This document shows positions 4,835 through 56,441 of a stretch of DNA of 64,000 bases, one piece after another. Position 1 is the stretch's first letter. Each line of letters starts with the position of its first letter. Both the position numbers and the translations under genes were made by a program. The stretch is from a virus, in the IMG/VR virus record IMGVR_UViG_3300045988_168118; one strand, 5' to 3'. The notes below the pieces were generated by a model. The model saw nothing but the letters and a program-made list of their open reading frames with translations, was not told the DNA's origin and did no database searches.

Positions 4835-5070
4835 TTAATTCCACTGGTTTATACTCTTTAATATATTTTCAATATTTTTTCTCCTATGGAATAATTAATA
4901 CACCCACAAGAAGTTGTATGCCCTGTTCGTAAGGAAGTTCCATCAACTGTTCTAAGATTTCCACATTCACATTGACAATCATAATAAATATTTTTACTTT
5001 TTTAGGACTTCTCTTTAAGACCAGCTAATTTTCCAAATTTTTTACCTGTTAAATCTACAAACTTACCCAT
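4835..5070 (-). pseudogene. frameshifted small zinc-ribbon protein gene (LTGKKFGKL...CQCECGN...SCGC family)
   Basis: The ATG at 5070 gives MGKFVDLTGKKFGKLAGLKEKS and then a stop. Frame +1 continues as ...YYDCQCECGNLRTVDGTSLRTGHTTSCGCINYS. The frameshift sits at an A6 run (cctaaaaaagt). The gene is absent from the ORF track because it is broken. Confidence 0.5.
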
Positions 5071-5145
5071 AATTTATTACTACTCTTCTTTTTAAGATAT
5101 AAAATTTTAAAAGATAAAAATATAAGGATATGTTCTCGATTTGCT

Positions 5146-5653
5146 TTAAAATGCAGATTCTTTATTATTAGATTTAACTTTTATTTTTAAATCTTCTATT
5201 GGAATTAACTCGTAATTATAATTTGTTGCGAACATTGGTTCAATTTTACAAACACTTCTATTCGCCTTACACCACAATAAAATTCCTTTATATCTACCCC
5301 TACGATTTTTATAAATAGATATTTTAATTTGAGGAGTCTCAAATCCGCCTTGAGCTAAAACATTTTCTAAAGCCGTACGATCATCATTATCAACTTCAAG
5401 CATAATCATACCACAATCAATTTTATCAGCAATAGACTTAGCTCCTCTTAAAAGATTTTGGTCATATTGCTGAGCTGTTATATAACTACTATTTAACTGA
5501 GTTGCTGTCATAATAAAAATACCATACTGGTTACACATATCTTTTAAACGGATTGAAATCATAAAAAGGATATTATCCTCTCTCAATCCTCTCACTCCAG
5601 TTTTAGACGAAACTTCACTTAGAATTTTCATGCTTGTATGTATGTAATCGAAG
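5146..5653 (-). CDS. dnaB: replicative DnaB-like helicase, exon 2 (C-terminal part)
   Basis: ISIRLKDMCNQYGIFIMTATQLN corresponds to the DnaB H3/H4 motifs (...SRSLK..AKEL.VPV.ALSQLNR). KISIYKNRRGRYKGIL matches IIAKQRNGPTG. Reading in frame upstream of the annotated Met gives CFDYIHTSM, a DYLQLM-like motif. The exon start at 5653 is inferred by analogy with the GyrB intron. Confidence 0.7.
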
Positions 5654-6668
5654 CACGTAAGTCCTCTCTTTCAAGAGGCGTTGACTATCTCTTACTACGA
5701 CAAAAGTCATAGGAAACCATTTCGAACTACGTACCAATAGTAGTCCTACTCCTCCGATCCGAGGATAGTCGATACAGGTTCTTTAGACATTTTTCCAAGT
5801 TCTTCTTTTAATCAAATCTGCAACAGTTGCTTTTGAGATTCCATATTGTTTTGCTATTTTATCATAGCTTTTCCCTGTTTTTTCTCTTTCTTCCCTAATT
5901 GCTTTTACAATTTCAACAGTAAGTTTGGTTTTTCTTCCCGTACCATCATTTGTTTTAAAAACTTCTGGCATTACAGTAGCATACCTTTTTCCAGTCCAGA
6001 TATTTAAAAAAGATTGCCATTCTATTCTTCCTTCGTATTTTTCTTTAAATATTTTAGTTGGACTTTTTTGTTCTTTATAAGCAATTCGCAAAGAGATAAC
6101 TTCTTCTTTCGTAAGAGCTGCATGAGACCATCTCATTTTTTCTTTAGTCTCTTCCTTATGCGGTCTCGCACAATTCTTTCCACCTTCTAAAACATTATAG
6201 CCATTAGGAACTTTTGAGTTAAATTTTAAAATATAATATTGTTCTAGCTTATTAAGTAAGTCAAAATCATTGTCATAAATTTCAGCTAATACTTCATAAG
6301 TAAAATTTTCATAACCATATTTTCTAAAAGCTCTATGAATTAATGATTTATAATCTTTATCAGAAGGATTGAAAGCAGAACTTCGATGCTGATTTTTTCT
6401 TTGCTCTGGGTTAATTGTTTGTCCTATATATTTTTTATTATTGATTTGATTAGTATAACAGTAAACTATTGCCATTTTTAACTCCTTCCACACAATTTTC
6501 TATTTGTGTATGAAAGTAGTCAAAATAAATTTGATTATTTCTGTCCAAAGTTTCCCACGGGATTCCCATATATTTCTACTTAGGGTTCCCCGTTAGCTAT
6601 CTTAAACGATAACCCCAGTGGTAAGCTGGAAAAGTTTTACACAGTCCTTTAAACCCACAAAAGGGTTG
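5654..6668 (-). mobile_element. group-I-like intron in dnaB carrying a GIY-YIG homing endonuclease
   Basis: A GC-richer, non-coding, structured sequence flanks a free-standing HEG. Both ends are homologous to the GyrB intron (shared tagctaacgggg..cctaagt, cccgtgggaa, gtagtaagagatagtca, tcgatacagg). The inferred 5' exon ends in U and the intron ends in G. Boundaries are approximate. Confidence 0.6.
5783..6493 (-). CDS. GIY-YIG homing endonuclease (intron-encoded)
   Basis: IVYCYTNQINNKKYIGQTINPEQRKNQH is a GIY-YIG motif with the conserved R and H. The C-terminus has an HTH/NUMOD-like KIAKQYGISKATV. Confidence 0.8.
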   Translation of the reverse strand: MWKELKMAIVYCYTNQINNKKYIGQTINPEQRKNQHRSSAFNPSDKDYKSLIHRAFRKYGYENFTYEVLAEIYDNDFDLLNKLEQYYILKFNSKVPNGYNVLEGGKNCARPHKEETKEKMRWSHAALTKEEVISLRIAYKEQKSPTKIFKEKYEGRIEWQSFLNIWTGKRYATVMPEVFKTNDGTGRKTKLTVEIVKAIREEREKTGKSYDKIAKQYGISKATVADLIKRRTWKNV

Positions 6669-7699
6669 AACACATATTTAACATCATATTCTCTAACTCC
6701 ACGTTTAATAGTATTCTCAATATCTTTTAGAGAAAAATCTGGTAATTGTTCTATATATAATGGACATCTCTTTAAAAGATTTGCCGCGTAAATAACACGC
6801 TCCCATTCTCCAGCATAATATTCTCCAGAAATAATATGCTCTTCATCTACATCAGATAAAAAAGCAATTATCATAGTCTGAATTTCATCTTTCTCTTGTT
6901 CTGTTGAAATAAAGATTGTTGGTTCTTTAGTTCCATTTGAAATCCATTTTTCTTCTTTAGAATCATAAATTTCATCGCAGGCAATAGAGCATGCGTCTGC
7001 GATCATCGCTCTTGTTTTTCCTACTCCAGTTGCGGCTGATCGCAAATAAAATTTCTTTAATCTAGCCCCTCTAGTTACAGTATTTATCAAGGGTCCGAAT
7101 AAAGGATATCCTGCTTCAGGGGTCTCTCTTAAGCGTTCGAGCAGTTCTAATGCCCCATTGCCTGCTAGTTCCGCACCATTAGAAGCATCATCTACATACT
7201 TTAATCTTATATCAGTAATTTTTTTGTCAATGATCTCTGCGATATCTTCAATAGATGAGTTGTCTAACCAATCTTCTTGAGCTTGTTTCTTTTTAACATC
7301 CATGATGTTATCTATATCATATAGCCATGATAAGTCCATTCCTATACTTTGATACATTCTTAGCAGAGTCATCTTTTTCATTCTATTATAATAGAAATCA
7401 AAAGCCGCTAATTGTACTGATTTACTTAATTTTTGAAGATATTCTTGTCCCTTATTAGCCTTATAAACTGCATAGCTTTTTGGTCTTTGCTCTAAATAAT
7501 CTTCTATCGCATTGATAGAAATTTCTTTAGCACCTAATTCATGTAAATTATATATAGACCCAAAAAGAATTTTATGAAATTCTTCTGTAAAATCTTCTTC
7601 ATTAAAAAAGTATTTTCCATCTTCATCTAGTAAATTAGGGTTTAAATAAATTCCCCCAATAACTTGAATAATAGATGGGATATCTACATATTTTCCCAC
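6669..7699 (-). CDS. dnaB: replicative DnaB-like helicase, exon 1 (N-terminal domain plus Walker A)
   Basis: GYPLFGPLINTVTRGARLKKFYLRSAATGVGKT is the DnaB Walker A (YPTGF..LD..T.G...G.L.ilaarPgmGKT). The ORF track extends to 6602 only by reading through into the intron. Confidence 0.7.
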
Positions 7700-7700
7700 T

Positions 7701-8216
7701 TCATTCTTCCTCCTTACTGTCTAAATTAAATAGCCTTTTCATCTTTCGAATCGCGGAAGGAGGGGTAATTTCTATATATTTTATTTTAGGTTTGTATTCT
7801 TCAATATTCTTATTTTCATTTGATAATTTCGCTAAATACAAGCTATAATAATATTGTAAAGCATCCTTGTATATAAAAGGGATAATACCAATCCCGCCGT
7901 TCGCTTTTTCTATTGAATTTCCTTTAATTTCATAAAACCAAATCAAAGATTTTAACATTCCACTATAAGTATAATTATACATAGCTTTGTAATCTTTAAT
8001 TTGTTTTTTAATTCTAGCGTTAATATAAGGTTCATCAAACAATTTCATAATATATTGCTCTAATTTTTCTAAGTCTTGTTCTTCCTGACTTTTTTCCTTT
8101 TGATTCTTTTCCGCACATTCTTTATGTGCATATCTTCTTGCAGAAATTTGAGTTGTTTCTATTTTATCTCTATCAAAACGTTTTTTACAATAAATACACG
8201 TTACAAAATGGCTCAT
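7701..8216 (-). CDS. zinc-ribbon protein (C-x2-C...RFDRD...RRYAH-x-EC N-terminal module)
   Basis: The N-terminus CIYCKKRFDRDKIETTQISARRYAHKEC is shared with the N-terminus of the AAA_5 ATPase at 33369..34574. The gene is immediately upstream of dnaB, so a helicase-loader-like role is possible but unproven. Confidence 0.4.
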   Translation of the reverse strand: MSHFVTCIYCKKRFDRDKIETTQISARRYAHKECAEKNQKEKSQEEQDLEKLEQYIMKLFDEPYINARIKKQIKDYKAMYNYTYSGMLKSLIWFYEIKGNSIEKANGGIGIIPFIYKDALQYYYSLYLAKLSNENKNIEEYKPKIKYIEITPPSAIRKMKRLFNLDSKEEE

Positions 8217-9223: not shown

Positions 9224-10216
9224 CATATATTATATAATATAATACATCAGACTATATCTTCAAATATTTATAAAGGAATATCAGAAAAAACAAAACCTTT
9301 TAATTTACGAATACCTTTTAAATATCGGCAAATAGATGAAGGTGCAACTCCAAAAGCTTTAGCACACTCTTTTTGTGAATTATAAGAGTCAATAAAATTA
9401 CCATTATTATCATATACATAAACTATTTTCTTGTTTGAATTACTCCAACAGTTGATCTTATCTTTTTTATACGATTTAAACTGATATTGTTTATAATGCT
9501 GCTGTTGTTCTGTTATACATCTCCATATACTAGTGTAATCCAAATTAAGCTTTTGTGCAGCTTCATAACCATTTACAAAAGACTGAATGTAATTGCCACT
9601 TAAATCATATTGATGACATTCTTTCATTTCATGTTGTTGTAAATTACTAGTGTAACTATGACGCATATTCTCTAATGCTGTTGACCACTCTAAATTATCT
9701 ATATTATTATTTAATTTATTTCCATCTATATGATTAACTTGCAATTCATCCATCTCTTCACAAGGTTTAAATGCTTTCATAACCAATCTATGAACTGAGT
9801 AATTCTTATCTATTCGATAACGTAAATGCACCATACGATAACCATTATTAGTAACTGATCCTCCTAATAAGGTTTTAGTTGAATCATTACGCACATTACC
9901 ATAATTAGATACACTATAAAAAGTTTCTTGACCGTTAATTAAAATTTTTTTCCAAATTTCTTGTTTTTCCATAATTATTCCTCCTAAATACCTACGGGTA
10001 TTTCGATTATAAAATCTACGGTTATAAAACCTAGTCGTTGAACCTTTGTCTCCGTGAGACACTTGGCTGCGGATTGGAACTACAATAAACGTTTTACTAT
10101 ACCAAGCACATTACTACTTGCCATTATAATATCGCTATTATAACTTAGTCTTTATTGATTATATTCTATCCCCGCAATTTCCCCATATTATCGTGGCAAA
10201 AATTCTCTCTCTATTC
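9224..10216 (-). mobile_element. group-I-like intron interrupting the Walker A (P-loop) codons of the Sak4-like gene; carries an HNH endonuclease
   Basis: Exon 1 ends ...YGEPKSG (ggt, a 3' U) and exon 2 begins KTT... at 9223, together giving GEPKSGKTT. The intron ends ...atatatG (an omega-G). It is structured and GC-richer than the surroundings. Confidence 0.65.
9268..9972 (-). CDS. HNH homing endonuclease (intron-encoded)
   Basis: HRLVMKAF...ELQVNHIDGNKLNNNIDNLEW is an HNH motif. The likely start is MEKQEIW at 9972, with an AGGAGG RBS upstream. The ORF-track start at 10062 is read-through of the intron RNA. Confidence 0.75.
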   Translation of the reverse strand: MEKQEIWKKILINGQETFYSVSNYGNVRNDSTKTLLGGSVTNNGYRMVHLRYRIDKNYSVHRLVMKAFKPCEEMDELQVNHIDGNKLNNNIDNLEWSTALENMRHSYTSNLQQHEMKECHQYDLSGNYIQSFVNGYEAAQKLNLDYTSIWRCITEQQQHYKQYQFKSYKKDKINCWSNSNKKIVYVYDNNGNFIDSYNSQKECAKAFGVAPSSICRYLKGIRKLKGFVFSDIPL

Positions 10217-12606: not shown

Positions 12607-13419
12607 TTATTTATTTCCAGAAGTGCTATTATAACCATAAATATCACTTTGATACATTTGAATCCAAAATTTTTCTTTTTCGTTCAATTCTGTTCTTGAA
12701 CATTCTTCCATCAGTTCAAAAGAAAAGTTCCAGACTCCATCTTGCTGCATTGCTTTATATAATTTGTTTGTTGCGGAAGCATCTATTCCCAATCCGCATT
12801 TAACGTGCTGCTTAAATCTATCTTGAATATTAACACTCTGTCCAATATAACATTGTTTAGTTAATAAATTTGTAATTTTATAAATGCCGCATTTAGCTGC
12901 TGTTCCTAATATTCTATTACACATTTCAGTTGTCTGTTTTTGAAAATAAGTTGACCAAATAATTTTGTTTAAAACAACAGGTTGATGAAAAGAAACTTTT
13001 ATTTTATTTAATGCCATTATATCTGATAATTCATTATCTGTAATAGTTAATTTATAAAAGTTAATCGCTTCTTCTTTTTCTCTTTCGCGGAGTTGAGCCT
13101 GTACGCCAGCACTCAGTGATTCTTTTATTTTATGTAAAGATTCATCAATTTCCTTTTTCTCTTTATCAGTCTTAGCTTTATATAAGTCATATTTTAATTC
13201 TATATCTTCATACGCTTTTTCTAATTCTAAAACATATTGTTCTTTTGCATATTTAATTTTATCTTTATAACTGTTGTACTCTTTTAGTTGACTTTCTTTA
13301 AAATCACTTAATTGGTCTAATATATCATTTTTCTTTTGACAAAAAGTTTTAAAAGCATCAGATTGCTGCTCTGTAAGCAAAGATAATTCTCTCTGCTTGC
13401 CTTTAATCTGCATTATCAA
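12607..13419 (-). CDS. coiled-coil protein with C-terminal GIY-YIG nuclease domain
   Basis: CGIYKITNLLTKQCYIGQSVNIQDRFKQH...YGYNSTSGNK is a GIY-YIG motif. A long coiled coil lies N-terminal to it. Confidence 0.6.
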   Translation of the reverse strand: MIMQIKGKQRELSLLTEQQSDAFKTFCQKKNDILDQLSDFKESQLKEYNSYKDKIKYAKEQYVLELEKAYEDIELKYDLYKAKTDKEKKEIDESLHKIKESLSAGVQAQLREREKEEAINFYKLTITDNELSDIMALNKIKVSFHQPVVLNKIIWSTYFQKQTTEMCNRILGTAAKCGIYKITNLLTKQCYIGQSVNIQDRFKQHVKCGLGIDASATNKLYKAMQQDGVWNFSFELMEECSRTELNEKEKFWIQMYQSDIYGYNSTSGNK

Positions 13420-17961: not shown

Positions 17962-18357
17962 TTACTCTGCATTGTAAGTAGCTTCTTGGCTATGACTTTT
18001 AATATAAGCTTTTCTTGCAGTAACTCCCGCACCCATTAGCTGATTAAATAGAATATCTGTTGCGGAAACATCTTCAACTGTAATCTGTCTGATAATTCTT
18101 TTCTCAGGATCTGTTAGAGTTTCTTCTGTCTCGTCTACTGACATTTCACCTAATCCCTTCATACGCCCAACCAAATACTTCTTTCCTGTATTGGCTTTTT
18201 TAAATACCTCTAATTCTTCATCATTTTTTAAGTATTTATATTCTTTTCCAATAGTAATTTTATATAAAGGTGGAACTCCCGCGTAAACATATCCATCCTT
18301 TATAAGTTCTGGACAAAAGTTCCATATAAAAGTATAAAAAAGATTTTTAATGTGTGC
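17962..18357 (-). CDS. type IIA topoisomerase subunit B (GyrB-like), exon 2 (C-terminal)
   Basis: AHIKNLFYTFIWNFCPELIKDGYVYAGVPPLY...MKGLGEMSVDETEETLTDPEKRI matches the GyrB TOPRIM end and C-terminus (YKGLGEM...TTMDP). Confidence 0.8.
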   Translation of the reverse strand, partial: AHIKNLFYTFIWNFCPELIKDGYVYAGVPPLYKITIGKEYKYLKNDEELEVFKKANTGKKYLVGRMKGLGEMSVDETEETLTDPEKRIIRQITVEDVSATDILFNQLMGAGVTARKAYIKSHSQEATYNAE

Positions 18358-19339
18358 CATACTCTCTTATATTTCTATAAGTACTGACTATCTCTTACTA
18401 CCAATATTTTGTAGAATACCCATTTCGAATTGCGTATCAATAGCAATCCTACGTAGCCGATCCGCTACTAGTCGATACAGGATTAAACGTTTTTCCATGT
18501 TATGTAATTTACTACTCTTTTAATTGTTCCTCTCGTACAAACACCAAGAAACTTATCATATATTTCACTAATGTTCAAATTTTCTTGTTCTGCTAATCTT
18601 CTAATTTCTTTAACATCCTCTTTAGTTAATTTAGCTTTTTTATTTCCTTTTCGTTTTACTTCCGAAGATATATCTCTTATCATTGATGTATCAACATTTT
18701 TCCAAGTATTTCCTCGATAAGCTTTACAAAAAGCATCATAACTAATTTCAGTAGAATATATTTTATATACTTCCGCAGGAGGAATATTTTGAAGAAAAAT
18801 CATTTCTCTAATATTTAAAACTTTTTCTTCATTTAATCTCGCTTTATTGTTTCTGCTTCCTATTGAATATTCCTCTCCAGGAGTATCCCCAGCATCTAAT
18901 ATATTATACCCAAAATTTCTATCTTTAGAATTATAAAAATCAATCCAACATTGCTCTCTTTCTAATATTTCTTGATTAGTTAAAGAATCACATATTTCAA
19001 CAATTTCAAAATTAAAATTTTCAAATCCGTATTTTCTAATTGCAGAAATTATAGGTCGTTGTTTATTTTTTTTAACTTCATCTCTATAATTTCTTAATCT
19101 CCTTGCAACATCTACAGATTTACCTATATAAATTTTATTATTTTGAAGATTAGTCCATTTGTAAATTGCTTTCATGTTTTACGTCCTTCCCACGGGACTA
19201 CCATATCTTCTGACTTAGGCTCCCCCGTTAGCTATTCTTCTTTTATAACATATATGAATTCCAAATGGAACTCATTTTATTATATTGTCCAAATAACCCC
19301 TGTGATGAGCAGGAAAAGGTATAACAGGCACTGTTACAT
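18358..19339 (-). mobile_element. group-I-like intron in the gyrB-like gene carrying a GIY-YIG homing endonuclease
   Basis: Exon 1 ends ...SDADVDG (ggt). The intron ends ...agtatG. Exon 2 resumes AHI..., which restores the conserved DADVDGAHI. The intron is homologous to the dnaB intron. Confidence 0.7.
18483..19175 (-). CDS. GIY-YIG homing endonuclease (intron-encoded)
   Basis: AIYKWTNLQNNKIYIGKSVDVARRLRNY is a GIY-YIG motif. The C-terminal HTH module is similar to that of the 5783..6493 protein. Confidence 0.8.
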   Translation of the reverse strand: MKAIYKWTNLQNNKIYIGKSVDVARRLRNYRDEVKKNKQRPIISAIRKYGFENFNFEIVEICDSLTNQEILEREQCWIDFYNSKDRNFGYNILDAGDTPGEEYSIGSRNNKARLNEEKVLNIREMIFLQNIPPAEVYKIYSTEISYDAFCKAYRGNTWKNVDTSMIRDISSEVKRKGNKKAKLTKEDVKEIRRLAEQENLNISEIYDKFLGVCTRGTIKRVVNYITWKNV

Positions 19340-20851
19340 ACCATCGACGTCCGCGTCTGACATTATAATTATTTTACCATATCTTAAATCTTCTTTATCG
19401 TAAGTTACTTTCATAGTTTTAGGATCAATTTTAAGTCCAAAAGCATCAATCATAGTCATAATTTCAGCATTTTTCTGAATTTGAGTTAGTGTAGCTTTTT
19501 GACAATTTAAAATTTTTCCTCTCACAGGCATAACCGCTTGGAATTCATTATTTCGTGCAGTTTTCAGATTACCTGAAGCACTATCACCCTCAGTCACGTA
19601 TATTTCGCACTTCATTCTATCCTTTGAATAACAATCCGCGAGTTTAGAATCAAATTTTAAAACTTTTTCTTTTTTCTTCTTTTCTTTTTCTCTTGCAAGT
19701 TCTCTTGCCTTTTTTGCGGCTTCACTTGCCTTTTTCGCGGCGATTGCTTTATCAAAAATTACTTTAATCTCTTTTTCATTTGACAAAAGCCACTCTTGAA
19801 TATTTTCCGCAATAATACCAGTAAAAGGCGTCATATCAAGCTTTACAATCCTAGATTTAGTCTGAGCGTCATAGGATACTCCTGGAGCTGTAATATTAAA
19901 AGCTACCATTAGTCCCTCTTGTATGGCAGATCCTTCTAAGTTATCATCTTTAGTTTTCAACCACTTTTTCTCTCTAAAGAATTTATTAAATTCTCTAGTA
20001 ATTAAAGACTTAATCTGTGTAATATGCGGTCCTGCATCTGTTTCTCCTGTATTAACATAAGAAATCATATTAGTTGAATAATTTTTTGTATATGTCAATA
20101 CTAAATCAATTTTATTTTTACCATTACTATGTTTAATGCATAGTCTATTGTTAATAATTTCAGTATCTTTAACTTTATCTGAAACTAAGTCATCAAGACC
20201 ATTTTTTGAAACATATTCAATAGCATCTTTTCCATTATGGGTTAAGTTAATTGTCAATCCTGGACATAAACAAACTAATACATGAAATAATTCTTTTATT
20301 CTTTTCTCATCTATTTCCGCGTGATTAAAAAATTGTTTATCTGGTTTCCAGGAAACAATAGTTCCAGTATGATGATCTCTCTGCAATCCTGTCTCTCTTG
20401 ATTTAAAAATTCCATCTTCAAAATAGATAGATTCAAAATGACCATCTCTAAAAGTTTTAACATTTAGATTACTTGAAAGAAAATTTGTTAATTTACTTCC
20501 AATTCCATTTAAACCTAAAGCTGTGCCTTCATACACACCATCTTCTGAAAACTTACCAGAAGTATTTAAAACATCAAAAGAAGCTTGCAAAACGCTTTCC
20601 CCATCTTCTCTCATAATATTCACTGGAAAGCCTTGAGCAAAATCTTCTACTGTACAAGAGCCATCATCTTTATAATCTACATTTATTATGTTTCCATTTC
20701 CCGCTTGAAACTCATCAATAGCATTAGATACAATCTCAATCAATAGCTGGGTTGAATACTCCGTGGACCCACAATAAACCCCAGGTCTAAGTCGTGTAAA
20801 CTCCCGCGGGCTTAATGATTCTATTGACTTCTCATTATATAAATTGCCCAT
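19340..20851 (-). CDS. type IIA topoisomerase subunit B (GyrB-like), exon 1 (GHKL ATPase plus transducer plus start of TOPRIM)
   Basis: LEIVSNAIDEFQAGNG is the GHKL N-box. The exon ends ...KIIIMSDADVDG. Confidence 0.8.
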
Positions 20852-23500: not shown

Positions 23501-24757
23501 TTACATTAACTGAGCTAATTGAGCTATTCTGCTACGATGAATATTTTTTAAAGTGACTTCACCATAAATAGGTTCTCCTTTGAAAATCTCTGATACTCTT
23601 CTCATTCCATTATTATTTCCTGCATATAAAGAAGAATCGACTTGAGTTTCGCTGTCTCCATCTAAAATACAAATTGAATCTTCTCCAATTCTTTGTAATG
23701 CAAGTCTCATTAGTTCTATATCCATATTCTGTGCTTCAGAAATATAAATACCCGCTTTCATATTAGTAGTGTCATAACCTCTAATATCTGACATTGGAAG
23801 CAAAACAATTTTTCCTTCCTCTATCATTTTTTCAGCGGCGATTTTGTCTCCCAATTTACTAGATAGTAGATTTCCTATCTGAGAGTCCAGAAGCTTTTCA
23901 TCTTTACTTCCAGGATAAAAACCAAGCTTTGCCGAACCCGCAGTTGCCACTGTGTTACAGAAAATAATAATCTTTTCAATTTCATGTTTTTCTAGTTTAT
24001 CAAAGAGGAAACCAAAAGATAGGTAGCTTTTACCAGTTCCCGCGGAACCTCTTATCATGGTAATTTTGTTGCTGTTCAAACTATCCATAGCCAACTGCTG
24101 ATATGCGTCTTTTGGCTTTATTTTTCCGAACATATTGCTATTGAAAGTTGTAAAAGGAACTTCTATAAATCTATCCTGAGCTCTTTTATATTTGCTAATA
24201 ATTTCATCTTTATTTTTGAGAATAAGATACTGGTTAATTAAAAACTCATTTAAAAACTCTGAAGAATTATAAATTTTATTATAGGCATCTGCTAGTTCTT
24301 CATCTGAATTACAGCAAATTTCTCTAAATCCGCAGTAGTCATTTTGCTTTTGGTCTAAGTATTCTACTTGTAAGCCAACCGATTTTGCGAGTTGTTTACA
24401 GCATAAATCTTCAGTAACAAAAATTAAATTTTTGTCTTTTTGCTTTAATGCGGTTAAGATAATTCTACTATCATTATTGTCAGATAAAACTAAATATTTT
24501 TTTAATTCAGAATCCCATTTAGTTTTATAATTGATAACACAATAACTATTATCATATTTGTTTAAAAGTTGAATCAATCTTCTAGCTCTAAATTTGATTT
24601 CAGAATCTTTAGATGCAGATATTTTTATGTTTTCTAATTCTTTAAGAGTAATATTGCTAATATAAAAATAGTTATTAAACGCATGATGTAATTCATTTAA
24701 TAACGCACAAGTATCATAAAAATACATATTATTCTCCTTCTTCATCATCTTCTTCAT
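23501..24757 (-). CDS. phoH: PIN-domain plus PhoH-like ATPase (YlaK/PhoH2-like)
   Basis: The N-terminus MYFYDTCALLNELHH is PIN-like. IRGSAGTGKSYLSFG is a Walker A, and the surrounding sequence matches the PhoH core. Confidence 0.75.
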   Translation of the reverse strand: MKKMMKKENNMYFYDTCALLNELHHAFNNYFYISNITLKELENIKISASKDSEIKFRARRLIQLLNKYDNSYCVINYKTKWDSELKKYLVLSDNNDSRIILTALKQKDKNLIFVTEDLCCKQLAKSVGLQVEYLDQKQNDYCGFREICCNSDEELADAYNKIYNSSEFLNEFLINQYLILKNKDEIISKYKRAQDRFIEVPFTTFNSNMFGKIKPKDAYQQLAMDSLNSNKITMIRGSAGTGKSYLSFGFLFDKLEKHEIEKIIIFCNTVATAGSAKLGFYPGSKDEKLLDSQIGNLLSSKLGDKIAAEKMIEEGKIVLLPMSDIRGYDTTNMKAGIYISEAQNMDIELMRLALQRIGEDSICILDGDSETQVDSSLYAGNNNGMRRVSEIFKGEPIYGEVTLKNIHRSRIAQLAQLM

Positions 24758-26523: not shown

Positions 26524-27015
26524 CTATTCTGCTTTAATTTTAAGATAAAGTTTTCCATTTGCATCAACAATGTAAATTTTTTCAATTCCTTCTTCAAAAG
26601 AAGGTTTTTCTAAATTAAAATACATATTTTTAATTACTTCTGGCGGAACATAAGAACGAGTACCTTTTCTATTTTCATTTCTTTTTAGACACTCTTCAAG
26701 AGATGTTTTCATCCAGATTACATTTATATGCGGATTTCCGCAAATATTTCTTAAAAGTTTATTTCTTGAAGTTCTATTCAAATGAGTAGCATCTGCAAAG
26801 ACATTTTTTTCTTCTAATAAATACTGATTGATTTGATGTATAAAGAGCTTAAATACTTCTTTTTCTTTTGAGAAGTATTCTTCGCCTTCTTTAACTAACG
26901 AAAATCTAATATCGTCTCTTGAAACATACTTATCAAAATATGGATTGATATGATTCTTTACCCAGGTACTTTTTCCTGAACCTGGACATCCTGACAAAAT
27001 ATATAAGTTAGCCAT
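26524..27015 (-). CDS. polynucleotide 5'-kinase (T4 Pnk kinase-domain-like)
   Basis: MANLYILSGCPGSGKSTWVKNH, SRDDIRFS and NENRKGTRSYVPPEVIKNMY align with the T4 Pnk motifs GCPGSGKSTWA, NRDD.RQ and NSKRGTKAVP. Confidence 0.75.
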   Translation of the reverse strand: MANLYILSGCPGSGKSTWVKNHINPYFDKYVSRDDIRFSLVKEGEEYFSKEKEVFKLFIHQINQYLLEEKNVFADATHLNRTSRNKLLRNICGNPHINVIWMKTSLEECLKRNENRKGTRSYVPPEVIKNMYFNLEKPSFEEGIEKIYIVDANGKLYLKIKAE

Positions 27016-27031
27016 AATATACCTCCTTTAG

Positions 27032-27388
27032 TTAGATTCTATGACCACAATTATAATCTCTTTTAGAGTTCCAACATTTGCCGCTTTTATTATATTTGCA
27101 ATCTTGTTTAGTACAGCTTGTTAAATCAGCTATTGGAAGCTTTTTCCCATCTACAAATCTACCAAGTTCAAACTCTTCAAGAAAGTCCTCATATCTATAA
27201 GAACCAAAAGGTCTAATTTCAGCATGATTTATTTGTTTTCCACAATATAAGCAGAATAAATTTTTTAAATGTCCAGCTTCTCTCTGTTGCCCTATACGTC
27301 TAGCGATAGGAATACCCCTTTTTCCACACTCTACACAATAAAAGTCACTTTTTGTAATTTCTTTATTTCTTGACATAATTATTACCAA
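27032..27388 (-). CDS. zinc-ribbon protein
   Basis: Carries the pairs CVECGK...CLYCGK. Confidence 0.4.
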   Translation of the reverse strand: MVIIMSRNKEITKSDFYCVECGKRGIPIARRIGQQREAGHLKNLFCLYCGKQINHAEIRPFGSYRYEDFLEEFELGRFVDGKKLPIADLTSCTKQDCKYNKSGKCWNSKRDYNCGHRI

Positions 27389-27489
27389 CTCTCTTTCTTT
27401 TTATATATTTATTATATCATATTTTTATAAAAATATAAAGATAGATCTTTTATTTAATCTATCTTTATATTGTTTTATAATGATAAAGT

Positions 27490-27717
27490 TTATTTAAACG
27501 TAAACCTTGTCAAAAATACTTTAAAATCCGCGGCAGTTGAAGGGAAAAAGACTTCTATTCCAGAAAACACATCAATAGACATCATTCCCATGATAGATTT
27601 TCCATCAATTACATATCTTCCCTTATGAACATCTACTTCGCCATCGACTTTCATAGCTTCATTAACAAATTCTCTAATTTCATCAATGTCAATTAACTTA
27701 ATTTTTACGCTTTCCAT
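27490..27717 (-). CDS. hypothetical small protein
   Basis: A 75-aa ORF followed by a terminator-like hairpin at about 27441-27470. Confidence 0.35.
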   Translation of the reverse strand: MESVKIKLIDIDEIREFVNEAMKVDGEVDVHKGRYVIDGKSIMGMMSIDVFSGIEVFFPSTAADFKVFLTRFTFK

Positions 27718-27833
27718 ATTTATTCCCTTCCTTTTTATTTTATTTATCTTATTATTTTAAAGTTTCGCCACAATGTTTCCTATACTTTATAAAATATAAA
27801 GTATAGGAATATTGAAAAATTTATTTAATACTC

Positions 27834-29078
27834 TTAAGAGTGATAGCGAAGCAAGAATTCATTGCTTACAGCTTTAAAGCTATTGGCTCCGTCATAAGAA
27901 CGAAATACAAGACCTTCCCTCATTCCGCCATCAATAGCAGATTTTCCAGTTGCAATTTTCAACAGCTCATCTACAGTATCTGGTAAAATAAAATGCTCGC
28001 TCACAATAGGAACACAAGGAATATTGTATTTTGTTAAAATATCAGTCATTTCTCTTGGATTGAATCTTTTTGTAAGACCTCCCTTAAAACCAATAATAAG
28101 ATTAAAAGCCATAAAGTCATGGTTATCCATGTCATAATCTCTCTTTTGAATATCTTTACCATAAGTCTCTCCCTGCACAGTTACAAAGGAGATGGTCTTA
28201 TACTTTTCATTGAAATCTTCAAATAATTTTTCAAGTACTTTTTCCATATTGTATCTTTTGGACATGGCAAGATATACGTTAGTATCATAATAGCAAGCCT
28301 TGCTTGGATCATCAAAAGATACGTTACGAGAGCAGACACGATAATCTTTTTTCCAGGCTTCCTTTTTCAAGGTAAAAGTGGTAGAAGTTCCATCAATTTT
28401 TTCTGTTGCAAATAATTCATCTTTGTTAGCGAGAATCCAAGACATATTCTGAATTCTTTCCTCATCAGTCTTTTTAACCCAAGCTGGGAAACCGCCTTTC
28501 TTATCTTTAGCTTTTCCAAAGATGAAAAACATTACTTTTTTGCCCCAGTTTCTATTCATCATCCAGCGTGCCCAAGGCTTAGAAAACAGTTCTGGTTTAC
28601 GCTGAGCCATTTTTTTATACTTATCTGCGGAAGCTGCTTTTCGCTTATTATCATCTGCATCAGAATATTTTACACCTAGTTCAGCTGTCAAAAAATGTCC
28701 TTCTGGATAAGAAGCTCCTTTTTTTGGATTAAAGATACAATAAACTCCTTCTTCATTCGTATAAGTATCCCAATCAAAATCTTTTGGATGCATAAGCAAA
28801 CCTTGAGATACGAAGTTACCTTTTCCGCCAAAAGTATACTTCTGTGTTTTTACCTTATAATGTTTTTTCTCTAAAAAAGCAAAGACTTCAGTTTCTGGAA
28901 CTTTAGAATCAATCTCAAAATAAATTGCGAGATCACCAGGTTTAAAAGTTCCTTTTCTGGTCATAATACGCCATCCGCCCACAACCGCGGCTTCACAATT
29001 ATCAGAACCTGTAATTGGCTCAATTTTATCAATAGTTACAACATAGCAAAGTTCTCTTTGTCCATTTTTATTTAACAT
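27834..29078 (-). CDS. RNA ligase-like nucleotidyltransferase (N-terminal OB-like domain plus KxDG adenylyltransferase)
   Basis: ATEKIDGTSTTF is motif I around residue 229. The long N-terminal domain resembles Rnl5 (Dra/Ngr-type) RNA ligases. The gene lies in the same block as the Pnk-like kinase and phosphoesterase. Confidence 0.55.
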   Translation of the reverse strand: MLNKNGQRELCYVVTIDKIEPITGSDNCEAAVVGGWRIMTRKGTFKPGDLAIYFEIDSKVPETEVFAFLEKKHYKVKTQKYTFGGKGNFVSQGLLMHPKDFDWDTYTNEEGVYCIFNPKKGASYPEGHFLTAELGVKYSDADDNKRKAASADKYKKMAQRKPELFSKPWARWMMNRNWGKKVMFFIFGKAKDKKGGFPAWVKKTDEERIQNMSWILANKDELFATEKIDGTSTTFTLKKEAWKKDYRVCSRNVSFDDPSKACYYDTNVYLAMSKRYNMEKVLEKLFEDFNEKYKTISFVTVQGETYGKDIQKRDYDMDNHDFMAFNLIIGFKGGLTKRFNPREMTDILTKYNIPCVPIVSEHFILPDTVDELLKIATGKSAIDGGMREGLVFRSYDGANSFKAVSNEFLLRYHS

Positions 29079-29093
29079 ATATATTTCTCCTTT

Positions 29094-29363
29094 TTATTTA
29101 ATTATTTTAAAAGATATTCCCATCAGCAGGAAAGGTAATCCTATTAGGATTTTTTCTTTTGTTGAAAGGTTGGTTAGTAAAGACATAAATGAAATCATAC
29201 TTAAAAAAGAAAAAATACTGCGATTAACGTCTACCGTTACTATTATTCTACTATTGTTATTATTTTCTTCTTCTTTCTTTTTTCTAATTCTTTTCTGTTT
29301 AGAATTAGGAGTATTACTCCTTGTTTCAATATATGTTTTATTATCCCTTGTGTAAGTTTTCAT
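29094..29363 (-). CDS. hypothetical basic protein
   Basis: An 89-aa ORF. Confidence 0.35.
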   Translation of the reverse strand: MKTYTRDNKTYIETRSNTPNSKQKRIRKKKEEENNNNSRIIVTVDVNRSIFSFLSMISFMSLLTNLSTKEKILIGLPFLLMGISFKIIK

Positions 29364-29450
29364 TTCCTTCCTTCTTTCTTTCCTTTTGATATAATAATTA
29401 TATCATATTTTTTTTAAAAAATAAAATAAGTTTTTTTAACTTACTTTATT

Positions 29451-47145: not shown

Positions 47146-47489
47146 AGTATTTTCCTTTTCATTTTATAATTTTTGGCTTTCCACAATAACATAAGCCATA
47201 AAAGTTATTGTGAGTCAAGTTTGACGCTCAAACTTATTTTCCTCTTAAAAAGCATATAACGACTAATCTTTATTGAATCTTTCTCGTAGATTCGAAGTGA
47301 GGTTCGTTAATACACCATCTCTTCTTGAACGACATAACGCCAGTCTGTTATGCAAGACCTATGCATTTCTCCTCCACACTAAGTGTGTTCGTAAACCTCA
47401 TAGCAGCTTACTAGGTGACTGATGGGATTTGAACCCATATAATTTAGAGTCACAATCTAATGCATTACCTTATCTGCCACAGCCACAGT

Positions 47490-47560
47490 AGCGGAAACAG
47501 GAGTCGAACCTGATGTCTTTAGGTTATGAGCCTACCGAGTAAACCGTTTCTCTCTTCCGC
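47490..47560 (-). tRNA. tRNA with CAU anticodon (Met or Ile2-type), irregular stems
   Basis: Acceptor gcggaag/(t)ttccgc, loop ctCATaa, T-arm caggttcgactcctg. The T-stem and acceptor each carry one mismatch in the hand fold. Confidence 0.5.
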
Positions 47561-47562
47561 AA

Positions 47563-50793: not shown

Positions 50794-50867
50794 TGCTTAA
50801 GAATGGACTTGAACCACCGACCTCATGCTTATCAGACATGTGCTCTAACCAACTGAGCTACTTAAGC
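50794..50867 (-). tRNA. tRNA-Ile (GAU)
   Basis: Acceptor gcttaag/cttaagc, D-arm tagctcagttggttagagc, loop ctGATaa, T-arm ggtggttcaagtccatt. Confidence 0.8.
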
Positions 50868-51339: not shown

Positions 51340-51413
51340 TGCGGCGGGTGGGATTCGAACCCACGACCTCTTGGTTATGAGCCAAGCGAGCTTCCAGGCT
51401 GCTCTACCCCGCG
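51340..51413 (-). tRNA. initiator-like tRNA-Met (CAU)
   Basis: The 5' part cgcggggtagagcagcctggaagctcg is near-identical to E. coli tRNA-fMet (cgcggggtggagcagcctggtagctcg). Loop ctCATaa. T-arm gtgggttcgaatcccac. The acceptor 3' strand pairs imperfectly in the hand fold. Confidence 0.6.
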
Positions 51414-53014: not shown

Positions 53015-53367
53015 TCTCCTTTATCAGCCTTTTCATTAACCGTTCCTGTAGAAATAGTGTGCTTAAAAAGACAGGATAAAATAGCTAGATACTGAAATAT
53101 TCTTTCTTAGCAGGAAAGTGCCCTATATGAGCAGTATAATTGCTGTATGTATCTATTTTTCCACTTCATTAAAAGATGACGCTTTTAATGAAATTAGCTT
53201 TCGATACCATCTCTGTCAAGTCCTTAGCTTACAAGGACGGCGAAGTGTAAGCCCTTCATCCCGTACTCATACTTCCCATTGATTTACAAGGCTGATAGTA
53301 CGAAACAACCTTGGAAGAATTTCATAGGTCATCTATGACTGAGGTTCTTCAATTTCTCAGATTTGAG

Positions 53368-53484: not shown

Positions 53485-54221
53485 ATCAGAAGTTGAGATT
53501 TGAACTCAAATATTTTCCCATTGCTCATCAGTGTATTTATCAATCTCAGATTTTTTTCGAGGGAGATTTTCTTTATCGCACCATTTTCTAATTGTATTAT
53601 CACTACAATTATATTTTTCTGCAATTTTAGTAAAAGGTAACTCTCGAATTAATTTTTTTAATTCTTCTCTATCAGGTCTTTCAATAATTCGTCTTTTTAA
53701 TTGAGCACATGATGGACATAAACCAGTTTTAGAAAAACGACTAATTTTTATTCCGCAATTAGAACATTTTCGTTCTTCTTTTTTATTTTCTTGTATCAAT
53801 TCATTCGCATAATTATCATTATAAACTTGATATTTCCATAAATCAATTCCTTCATACAAATTAGTTGTATGAATTTCTCTATGACAATTTGAACAGACTA
53901 AAAGACATTTTTTTTTACTTCTTCTAAATCTTCTTCAATATTATGACAATTTCCACTGGATAATTGATACTTTTTATCTTCTGGATTTATATATATGATG
54001 AAACTCTAAAGCTCCAACACATTTATTATATCCACATAAGCTACAACAAGAACCTAATACTTTTACTAAGTTTTCCTTTCTTCTCTTTCTAAAATCTGTA
54101 ACAGCTTTAATATTATTACTCATAATTTTTCTCCTTTTCTATTTTATAAATATAAAGAATTAACATTATGAGTTAATCACTGTTGACCATAGTTCAAATG
54201 CATTACTTATGCTACTCCCGC
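53485..54221 (-). mobile_element. 737-bp insertion/intron in the anticodon loop of tRNA-Asn carrying a frameshifted HNH endonuclease gene
   Basis: The insertion lies between the loop nucleotides ctgt|taa. Its 3' end is ...ctgaT, which is not a canonical omega-G. The junction is repeat-ambiguous, and the data do not distinguish an intron from a simple disruption. Confidence 0.5.
53506..54123 (-). pseudogene. HNH endonuclease (HNH plus zinc ribbon plus HTH) disrupted by a frameshift in an A9 homopolymer
   Basis: The ATG at 54123 gives MSNNIKAVTDFRKRRKENLVKVLGSCCSLCGYNKCVGALEFHHIYINPEDKK...NCHNIEEDLEEVKK and then a stop. Frame +1 continues CLLVCSNCHREIHTTNLYEGIDLWKYQ... into ORF 53506..53859. 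The shift is at the T9 run (plus strand 53908-53916). Confidence 0.6.
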
Positions 54222-55292: not shown

Positions 55293-55501
55293 TAGACTAT
55301 TGCGAACTTGCCGTCTACCATGGCGACTCATTTAATTTCTCCTTTTCGGATATGTCACAGTGACATAACTGTGAATTGTGGGTGCGATCTTGCCTAGGTT
55401 CAAGCCTTTACCCCGGCGGAGCCAGTACAGGTACCTTTTCCGCTGTGCCCTACACTCTATTGCTGTGTATGCCGTTCACCGCATTTAATAAAGGATTTGC
55501 G

Positions 55502-55573
55502 AGCCGGTAGAGGGATTCGAACCCCGGTTTACTGATTATAAATCAATCGCATTGCCAACTATGCTATACCGGC
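55502..55573 (-). tRNA. tRNA with UAU anticodon (Ile-AUA decoder type)
   Basis: Acceptor gccggta/taccggc is perfect. D-stem gcat/atgc. Anticodon stem attga/tcagt, loop ttTATaa. T-arm cggggttcgaatccctc. Confidence 0.55.
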
Positions 55574-56441
55574 ATTTAAAAAGCGAGTTTCCTCGCCTTA
55601 ATAATTTTTTATTAGGCTGAGATTATTGACCTATTATAATTAGCTTTGCTTACCGTTGGAAGTAAGTAATCACACGAACGATTAATCCGTAGCTAATAGC
55701 GACACCAGTTTCAGTGGCTCCTGGCAAACTCTTACTACATAGTATTATAAATTTCCTTTCAGCACATTCTTCCTTGCGGGATTCAAAGATTGCAGTCTCT
55801 TAGAGTTGCACCTAATTGTACTTTTTCATATCTCACCTTGCGAGTTCAATATGTGTCCATATTACAGAACAATAAGTCGCTTTTCTCTATGTAGTCATGT
55901 ACACTTTTGCTGTATAAGTAAATGTTTTATTTTCATATAATATATTAGAAAACCAAATCAGACTCTTCCTGATTAAATATCCAATGCAATCATGTACATA
56001 TATTATGGATTACGAGGTACACATTTGAGCATCTATACCTTTTGAGTACAGCCCACTCATCGCAACCCTGCTCGTCTTGCTATCGACTTACTTTAAGCTA
56101 TTCCAACTATCTTTCGATTTAAGTCAGAAATGACTAATTAAATACAGCACTTGCTCTTGCGGAACTTGCACCATAAAACAACCTTACTATCCACTCATTT
56201 CTGAGTTTATTTTATAGCACCTTTCCCATGATGCCCGACCAACCATTGTCCTCAGCGGATGCCCCAAAACTTTAGGTTGGAACGTTAGTAAGTATTGGCT
56301 TTCTATTACTCCTCTTTAGAAGGAGGCATTTTCATGCTTTATACGTGTCACCACGCTTATTTAACGACCTGAAGCCAGCCGATTAGTTTTTCAAACGTGT
56401 TCGCCGAAGTTAGTGCGTTGTTGGATAACTAATAATCCGAG

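Follow-up and report, generated by a model that had tools for sequence, protein, structure and literature searches.

Two tRNA genes with a UAU anticodon in one phage tRNA array appear to have different histories: a conserved tRNA-Ile and a converted tRNA-Thr

In Mycoplasma mobile, a tRNA-Ile(UAU) works without modification of U34, provided that the isoleucyl-tRNA synthetase (IleRS) is adapted to U34 and the ribosome keeps this tRNA from reading AUG, and some Firmicutes possess tilS together with a TAT gene (PMC3575796). At the site by which IleRS reads U34 (W905 in E. coli), enzymes have Trp or Arg, and Arg or Lys there would predict that UAU tRNAs are charged efficiently (PMC3575796). Redundant CAU and UAU tRNA-Ile genes are ascribed to Lactiplantibacillus plantarum (Tomikawa 2018, as cited in PMC10688831), and in Bacillus subtilis a G34->U change in tRNA-Ile1 suppressed the deletion of tilS (PMC3919564). 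The cyanophage S-CREM1 carries a TAT tRNA, and its host has no tRNA of that anticodon (PMC9964418). Alloacceptor anticodon shifts, also called remolding or recruitment, have been described in mitochondria, in eukaryotic nuclear genomes and in a few Enterobacteriaceae (PMC3923123, PMC4783518); a rescue that led from tRNA-Arg to tRNA-Thr(UGU) is attributed to Saks 1998 in the papers on anticodon shifts. In this study, we analysed a stretch of viral DNA of 64,000 nucleotides (nt) (IMG/VR record IMGVR_UViG_3300045988_168118), referred to as the window, which carries two tRNA genes with a UAU anticodon, named tA and tB here. A preliminary description of the window had taken both for AUA decoders by which an AT-rich phage may bypass TilS. 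We favour, with a probability of about 0.72, an account in which the two genes have separate histories, tB being a conserved tRNA-Ile(UAU) and tA a converted tRNA-Thr gene whose present function we infer. The two genes and the tRNA genes of the same array that bear on their reading are the following.

55502..55573, minus strand: tA, a UAU tRNA on a tRNA-Thr body (ARAGORN; RF00005, 61.4 bits)
58960..59037, minus strand: tB, tRNA-Ile(UAU) (ARAGORN; RF00005, 61.1 bits)
50794..50867, minus strand: tRNA-Ile(GAU), the reader of AUU and AUC and companion of the UAU genes (ARAGORN; RF00005, 72 bits)
51340..51412, minus strand: CAU tRNA with an initiator-like body (acceptor CGCGGGG..., first pair mismatched), not an Ile2-type gene
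47489..47561, minus strand: second CAU tRNA, with an atypical D arm and a body that is not Ile2-like (RF00005, 43.1 bits; cloverleaf; alignment)

ARAGORN placed 31 tRNA genes in a single array at 43.3-59.0 kb, every one on the minus strand, and called tRNA-Ile(tat) at 55501..55573 (tA) and 58959..59038 (tB) with a complete cloverleaf for each. The RF00005 scores of both genes (E ~1e-10 over the 64-kb window) lie above the gathering score of 29 bits, their alignments span model positions 1-71, and the minimum-free-energy folds are cloverleaf-like (z = -2.5 for tA and -2.7 for tB). These results bear out the earlier observation of two cloverleaf tRNAs with UAU. The outcome that the preliminary description had named as refuting, another anticodon or register under a covariance model, did not arise: the model alignment left UAU at positions 34-36 in both genes, within the loops UUUAUAA (tA) and CUUAUAA (tB). 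Both show the U34 A35 U36 A37 A38 of an AUA-decoding loop, and both encode T34 in place of the C34 that marks a TilS substrate. None of the CAU tRNAs in the window has an Ile2-like body. The CAU gene at 51340..51412 is 78% identical to a presumed E. coli tRNA-fMet sequence; this figure, like the others obtained with the same set of reference sequences, is given little weight here.

The acceptor stem of tB is GCGGGAU/AUUCCGC with discriminator A73. Its anticodon stem is formed by G27.U43, U28-A42, C29-G41, G30-C40 and C31-G39, and it has a D loop of 11 nt and a variable loop of 7 nt. Outside the anticodon, the identity elements of E. coli tRNA-Ile are A73, U12-A23, C29-G41 and C4-G69. Three of these four are present in tB (A73, U12-A23 and C29-G41), and G4-C69 replaces C4-G69. 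The D arm, AGCUCAGU..GGUUAGAGC, had been described as Ile-type and indeed matches that of the tRNA-Ile(GAU) of the window, but it cannot establish Ile identity alone because Thr, Lys and Met tRNAs often have it too. Among phage genomes, the best annotated matches to tB were tRNA-Ile(gat) genes of Streptomyces phages (82% over 62 nt, E = 7e-7), followed by the tRNA-Ile of Ruminococcus gnavus phage phiRgPS_6, which has the anticodon TAT (E = 2e-6); an Ile2-like CAT gene of a Vibrio phage was also among the best annotated neighbours. When the anticodon was masked, the top non-orthologous neighbours were Ile(GAU) (0.76) and Ile(UAU) (0.73-0.75), with Lys and Thr coming close; many of the Ile(UAU) loci in this comparison had been fetched by a pattern that shares 18 nt with tB. 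Annotated E. coli genomes gave near-chance matches only (E = 0.05-0.6), which were not used to assign tB.

The conservation of tB points in the same direction. The gene is kept with TAT in two metagenomic relatives of the window, L001 and L002, and in 10 metagenome contigs from several assemblies, and the copies in L138 and L142 show compensatory changes in the acceptor stem. The leader of about 215 nt immediately 5' of the gene is also conserved in relatives. A scan for the arm pattern with the anticodon left free returned only TAT copies of tB, save one unrelated tRNA with CTA. From these comparisons, tB appears as a bona fide Ile-type tRNA that is fixed in the tRNA set of this phage group, and its best reading is that of the AUA reader of the group, for which lysidine would be unneeded because position 34 is encoded as U and not as C. 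The host IleRS would charge tB via A35, U36, (t6)A37, A38, A73, U12-A23 and C29-G41, and charged tB would then read AUA, which accounts for 21 per 1000 codons in the phage. We infer that tB bypasses TilS in this way, which hinges on acceptance of U34 by the host IleRS; the conservation of the gene suggests that U34 is accepted.

The unrelated CTA tRNA lies on the viral contig L149 (309-385), where an end of the D arm and an anticodon stem like those of tB are combined with an amber-suppressor anticodon (ARAGORN 'Pyl'). It is a second example of an Ile-like arm with a different anticodon.

The codon usage of the phage was in line with the heavy use of AUA that the preliminary description had supposed. 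In 46 long open reading frames (ORFs; 13,335 codons), ATA makes up 285 of the 1,119 Ile codons (25%), or 21.4 per 1000 codons, and the GC content of the window is about 30%. The proposed TilS bypass by an AUA decoder therefore fits tB, with its Ile-type body and conserved UAU in an AT-rich phage, but it does not extend to tA, which is derived from tRNA-Thr and is no second dedicated Ile tRNA. Genomic UAU anticodons, which had been called rare, proved to be uncommon but not exceptional: one scan found at least 120 tRNAs with a CUUAUAA loop and an Ile-type D arm among 185,579 species genomes, the matches listed including bacteria of the candidate phyla radiation (CPR), Ignavibacteria, DPANN archaea, Lachnospiraceae and others, and phage examples are on record. 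The literature on phage Ile-TAT, including a 2026 phage-tRNA preprint, gave no usable figure for the frequency of TAT anticodons in phages.

A TAT gene was also seen on the chromosome of E. coli Z0117EC0133 (NZ_CP098183.1, 3550561-3550636; L151, 295-370). It is an ileX/ileY-like tRNA-Ile with TAT for CAT and the loop CTTATAA; this naturally occurring C34->T variant belongs to E. coli, whose IleRS reportedly charges UAU tRNAs poorly.

The second gene, tA, has a different origin. It combines the anticodon arm AUUGA-UUUAUAA-UCAGU with an acceptor stem that includes G1-C72 and C2-G71, U73, a variable loop of 4 nt and one non-canonical pair in the T stem (C49.C65). The window and L001, which are about 95% identical in DNA, have the gene order Ile(tat)-Trp-Tyr-Asp-Ala-Gln-X-Pro-Leu(tag)-Gln-Tyr-Glu in common, in which X is tA in the window and Thr(tgt) in L001. 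The two genes at X differ at only six positions (26, 28, 32, 35, 45 and 47), so that identity is 100% outside positions 26-47; the acceptor, D and T arms are identical, as are flanks of about 50 nt. TGT, C28, C32 and G45 are found in L005, which shows the same Thr-Pro synteny, in L009 and in L003, where the gene is split, and tA has its acceptor stem, T arm and U73 in common with the genes of L005 and L009 and with the more distant Thr(tgt) genes of L007 and L008. Since the outgroups L003, L005 and L009 carry TGT, C28, C32 and G45, the direction of change is known, and the window lineage gained C28->U, C32->U, G35->A and G45->A, four transitions that break no helix.

Comparison of the tRNA body led to the same assignment. 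After masking of the anticodon, the nearest neighbours of tA are all Thr, with identities of 0.93, 0.87 and 0.86 to Thr(UGU) genes, whereas the highest identity to any of 142 Ile tRNAs is 0.62; Thr ranks first and Ile 15th of the 21 ARAGORN isotype classes. The L001 orthologue matches annotated tRNA-Thr in 5,419 of 5,426 E. coli genomes. None of the four non-anticodon Ile elements is present in tA, which has U73, A12-U23, U29-A41 and G4-C69 instead. At position 35, where Thr tRNAs carry the G that serves the reading of ACN and recognition by threonyl-tRNA synthetase (ThrRS), tA has A. The anticodon stem was weakened by the replacement of C28-G42 with U28.G42, which still pairs, and the score against the tRNA model was kept (61.4 bits for tA and 63.0 for the Thr orthologue in L001).

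The TAT form of tA is known from one genome only among the collections metagenome_contigs and viral_contigs: in the former, no Thr-type D arm was found together with TTATAA, as the TAT allele would require, and the exact anticodon arm of tA had no match in the latter. The closest relative, L136, is 98-99% identical to the window and lacks the entire Ala-Gln-GOLLD-tA segment, and the module is also absent from L137. The array of the window contains no tRNA-Thr because its sole Thr gene was converted to tA. A donor tRNA that could have supplied the anticodon arm by recombination was looked for and none was found. Judged by orthology and synteny, tA is best described as a recent alloacceptor anticodon shift and not as a second dedicated Ile tRNA. 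The view of tA as a dedicated AUA tRNA-Ile was thus not borne out, as the gene is by synteny an orthologue of Thr(UGU) in which G35->A occurs only here.

Whether the divergence of tA is unusual was judged from 23 orthologous tRNA pairs between the window and L001, with 69 anticodon positions. The pairs differ at 0-10 positions, and their overall divergence of 5.4% equals that of the flanking DNA. Across pairs, divergence is highest at position 26 (26%), in the anticodon stem (8.9%) and in the variable loop (8.7%). The six clustered differences of tA were considered as a statistically exceptional feature and are not convincingly so, as other pairs reach 10 and the clustering for the most part follows the general pattern. 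What is special in tA, as far as this comparison goes, is the anticodon change itself together with C32->U. Only 1 of the 69 anticodon positions changed, the one in tA, and about 3.7 changes would be expected at the neutral rate; therefore, anticodons seem to be under some constraint.

These numbers bear directly on the idea that tA is an inactivated or neutral leftover of an accessory tRNA-Thr, poorly charged by ThrRS and IleRS alike. Its divergence is no outlier among the pairs, array content varies among close relatives up to the loss of the whole module, and tA has lost the ThrRS determinant G35 and lacks the Ile elements, all of which a leftover would show. The constraint on anticodons and the intact cloverleaf and model score of tA speak against it, and we regard it as a tentative possibility.

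Some other tRNA genes of the array also differ from their relatives. In several orthologous pairs of the window and L001, such as Gln at 53367 and Ser-tga, most differences are paired changes within the anticodon stem. The tRNA-Trp(cca) of L001 (10674-10750) is 6 nt longer than that of the window (58051-58121), the extra bases lying either on the 3' side of the anticodon stem or in the variable region. In L136, a tRNA-like sequence with a mini anticodon arm (4 bp/5 nt) lies at about 5070-5140, at the site of the Ala-Gln-GOLLD-tA module of the window. A tRNA-like element of 57 nt at 43502-43558 of the window (minus strand) has acceptor, D and T arms and no anticodon arm; it scores 41.4 bits with RF00005 and was not called by ARAGORN.

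What tA does at present depends on its charging. G35 is a major determinant for ThrRS. The change of G35 to A would remove this determinant, so that threonylation should collapse, and A35-U36-A37-A38 would create an anticodon signature recognised by IleRS. We put the probability that tA is isoleucylated, likely inefficiently, and serves as a weak and redundant AUA reader just short of an even chance. That it is effectively inert we hold to be a substantial possibility, clearly below even odds, and some of the remaining probability belongs to other outcomes.

Insertion of Thr at AUA is the outcome that the codon data address. In this case tA would still be charged by ThrRS via its intact acceptor stem and act as a missense or recoding tRNA, for which the retention of the Thr-family G1-C72, C2-G71 and U73 could be cited. 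However, G35 as the major ThrRS identity element is lost, and at 21 AUA per 1000 codons misincorporation would be costly. Opposite the 27 ATA codons of the topoisomerase, five homologues have I in 38%, L in 16%, V in 9% and T in 9% of cases, a profile shared with ATT and ATC, and the Thr value equals background. Recoding of AUA to Thr was ruled out on this alignment of ATA with I, L and V in the manner of ATT and ATC, and we consider a Thr-inserting tA highly improbable.

Alternatively, tA and tB could both be functional, Ile-accepting AUA decoders, kept to raise AUA capacity without TilS. Both are intact cloverleaves with UAU, A37 and A38, but the body of tA is that of a Thr tRNA, with no Ile element beyond the anticodon loop. 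IleRS recognition depends above all on the anticodon, anticodon swaps can switch tRNA identity (PMC3923123), and a host IleRS that tolerates U34 is implied by the conservation of tB. The four derived changes of tA break no helix and leave the model score unchanged; the anticodon stem, however, became weaker and not stronger. ATA is a common codon in the phage, yet the TAT form of tA is unique to this genome and the closest relative does without the gene, so that tA would be dispensable. On balance, two dedicated decoders are rather unlikely.

A further explanation of the changes in tA is suggested by the endonucleases in and around the array. Five homing-endonuclease genes with Pfam matches, four GIY-YIG and one HNH with NUMOD domains, are present in the window.

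5783-6493: homing-endonuclease gene
9268-10062: homing-endonuclease gene
12607-13419: homing-endonuclease gene
18483-19175: homing-endonuclease gene
44876-45550: homing-endonuclease gene

One homing-endonuclease gene parts the two pieces of a GyrB-like subunit (19334-20851 and 17962-18360). In relatives, such genes have reached the anticodon loops of tRNA genes. In L003 (3092-3554), an ORF with a PD-(D/E)XK domain (PF11645, E = 7e-30) is inserted after U36 of the tRNA-Thr gene. The insertion is 463 nt long and the ORF 438 nt, with non-coding flanks of 12 and 13 nt, which leave no room for a ribozyme, and a self-splicing group I intron was ruled out for this reason. In L002, an HNH-like ORF is found at 6968-7730 and the orphan 3' half of the Thr gene starts at position 36/37. 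In L136, an endonuclease related to that of L003 lies in the anticodon loop of tRNA-Pro (~5600-6400). The endonuclease ORFs in anticodon loops share a C-terminal domain that is also present in an ORF of the window at about 53506-54117.

The changes in the anticodon arm of tA could then be a by-product of conflict with homing endonucleases, either as an escape of the target site or as scars of repair. The ORF of L003 splits the Thr gene directly after U36, in L002 the HNH-like ORF and a different tRNA-Thr replace the 5' half of the gene, L136 has the related endonuclease in tRNA-Pro, the window itself has five endonuclease genes, and the six differences between the window and L001 all lie within 11 nt of the insertion site, with none in the other ~100 positions. 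Most of this clustering is explained by the fast evolution of the anticodon stem, position 26 and the variable loop throughout the array, though; no recognition sequence is known for these endonucleases, and no scar or duplication is visible at tA. We therefore consider this origin improbable. It is tempting to go further and to see tA as an early stage of a natural Thr-to-Ile identity switch, already charged by IleRS and reading AUA, perhaps started or favoured by the pressure of homing endonucleases, but this combined scenario is unlikely.

Several points weigh against the account of two histories that we prefer. The assignment of the tB body is non-unique, as tRNA-Lys genes of jumbo phages match it nearly as well (E = 8e-6), and an E. 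coli prophage tRNA-Thr(UGU) shares the anticodon arm of tB bar position 35, a match that is near chance (E = 0.05). The CAU tRNA at 47489..47561, either an elongator Met tRNA or Ile2, could be an Ile2 of the lysidine type. For tA, the missing Ile elements together with the weakened anticodon stem argue that it is a poor Ile acceptor and decoder. The placement of the host is based solely on the similarity of the endolysin. Finally, UAU tRNAs are poor substrates for the IleRS of E. coli, and on the ribosomes of this species a UAU tRNA reads AUG in error (PMC3575796), so that a UAU tRNA is not automatically beneficial to a phage.

The surroundings of both genes contain non-coding elements, of which the following lie closest.

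56603..56631, minus strand: strong promoter-like site, heading tRNA-Gln - GOLLD-like RNA - hairpin - tA - tRNA-Pro - tRNA-Leu
55614..56068, minus strand: GOLLD-like RNA (RF02032; 100.2 bits, E = 4.9e-26, full model 1-416; gathering score 150)
55578..55597, minus strand: hairpin GGCGAG-GAAA-CUCGC followed by U5, read from the sequence, ending 4 nt before tA
59253..59281, minus strand: strong promoter-like site (TTGATT-17-TATAAT, TG present); distance to tB, which lies downstream, about 215 nt

GOLLD RNAs sit in or beside phage tRNA islands (PMC12286853). The GOLLD-like RNA of the window is located between tRNA-Gln and tA, about 40 nt upstream of tA; the match is significant, with a score under the curated cut-off. 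It has an orthologue in L001 (12899-13354; 104.2 bits), BLAST found the region in L002, L003 and L005 as well, and with about 370 nt upstream the whole element would measure about 825 nt. The hairpin next to tA looks like a terminator or processing signal, and L001, L002 and L003 have kept it upstream of their Thr tRNA; it was not flagged by a terminator scan. Five near-identical strong promoter-like sites on the minus strand (59281-59253, 58043-58015, 57632-57604, 57302-57274 and 56631-56603) share TTGATT-17-TATAAT, with an extended TG in four of the five. They stand at the start of short units made up of tRNAs and of non-coding stretches, 150-400 nt long, that are richer in GC. These stretches (e.g. 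57110-57270, 57310-57600 and 59040-59250) are kept in relatives and match no Rfam family. A weak match to the Y RNA-like YrlA (RF02553) at 46674-46785 on the minus strand (37 bits, E = 2.6e-5; gathering score 69) adjoins tRNA-Lys, about 3.5 kb from a DUF2828/VWA protein.

The phage has no close relative among deposited phage genomes, as the region at 54.5-60 kb had no megablast match among 50,697 phage records. With the topoisomerase of the window as tblastn query, all matches were below 41% identity and mostly on unverified or bacterial-like contigs; the relatives of the window are metagenomic contigs of 134-198 kb, and we take the window to be part of a phage whose relatives measure about 196 kb. 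The replication and repair genes in the window comprise a split type II topoisomerase, a RecJ-like exonuclease, a DnaB-like helicase, ThyX, a DNA ligase and RNase H. The window also encodes a CHAP-amidase endolysin, which is nearest to those of Ruminococcus, Faecalibacterium and Acutalibacteraceae phages, and because of this similarity, the only basis for the guess, the host is probably a member of the gut Clostridia. Neither TilS nor an aminoacyl-tRNA synthetase was found among the annotated ORFs of the window. A set of RNA-repair or RNA-conflict genes spans 26524-43224 plus 57657-57980.

26524-27015: AAA_33 kinase
27834-29078: RNA ligase
30756-33242: major-vault-protein-like protein (MVP shoulder and Vault_3)
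33369-34574: AAA_5 ATPase
35633-37102: SPFH/flotillin protein
41743-43224: DUF2828/DUF7788/VWA protein
57657-57980: cREC_REC cyclic-phosphate receiver domain
within the set: three metallophosphoesterases

Other ORFs encode a SocA/Panacea antitoxin domain (46042-46473, within the tRNA array), a NADAR domain (62267-62707) and a PIN-PhoH fusion (23501-24757).

Neither tA nor tB overturns current understanding; what they offer is careful annotation and a system that is tractable by experiment. Virus-borne tRNA-Ile(UAU) genes form a small set, to which tB is a well-conserved addition, and its presence predicts that the IleRS and ribosome of the host cope with an unmodified or differently modified U34 without AUG being read as Ile. 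In the case of tA, an isotype called from the anticodon alone can mislabel phage tRNAs and here hides the loss of the only tRNA-Thr. The gene also offers a clean, synteny-rooted case for asking whether one transition in the anticodon is enough to shift a tRNA from ThrRS to IleRS in vivo. If such an identity switch is true, phage arrays would make new decoding capacity by anticodon mutation, besides the acquisition of genes. The setting is itself notable for its GOLLD-like RNA, its RNA-repair genes and the endonucleases whose insertion sites are anticodon loops.

In comparison with known systems, tB is like tRNA-Ile2(UAU) of M. mobile and of other bacteria without tilS in its encoded UAU, its Ile-type body and A37/A38. 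It differs from them in being phage-borne, in its use of a host IleRS and ribosome that are perhaps not adapted to U34, and in its D loop of 11 nt and variable loop of 7 nt. The gene of phiRgPS_6 (MT980839.1, 36393-36466; 82% over 61 nt) and the TAT tRNA of S-CREM1 have the same loop CUUAUAA as tB, but they belong to different phage lineages, homology is confined to the tRNA, and tB carries insertions in the D loop and variable loop. The lysidine-dependent tRNA-Ile2(CAU), such as E. coli ileX/ileY and the CAT gene of a Vibrio phage annotated as 'tRNA-Met', has the same D arm as tB and a largely matching anticodon stem, whereas position 34 is T in both tA and tB, which are thus no TilS substrates. 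As in documented alloacceptor shifts, tA is a syntenic orthologue with a foreign anticodon on the body of the ancestral isotype; unlike them, it lies in a phage tRNA array, where the Thr copy was converted without prior duplication. As in the B. subtilis suppressor, one point mutation in the anticodon yields a UAU tRNA, but there G34->U arose on an Ile body under laboratory selection and was able to take over AUA decoding, whereas the change in tA affects position 35 of a Thr body. On this evidence from sequence comparison, tB is a new member of the known class of lysidine-independent tRNA-Ile(UAU), and tA adds an instance in a phage tRNA array to the known process of alloacceptor anticodon shift.

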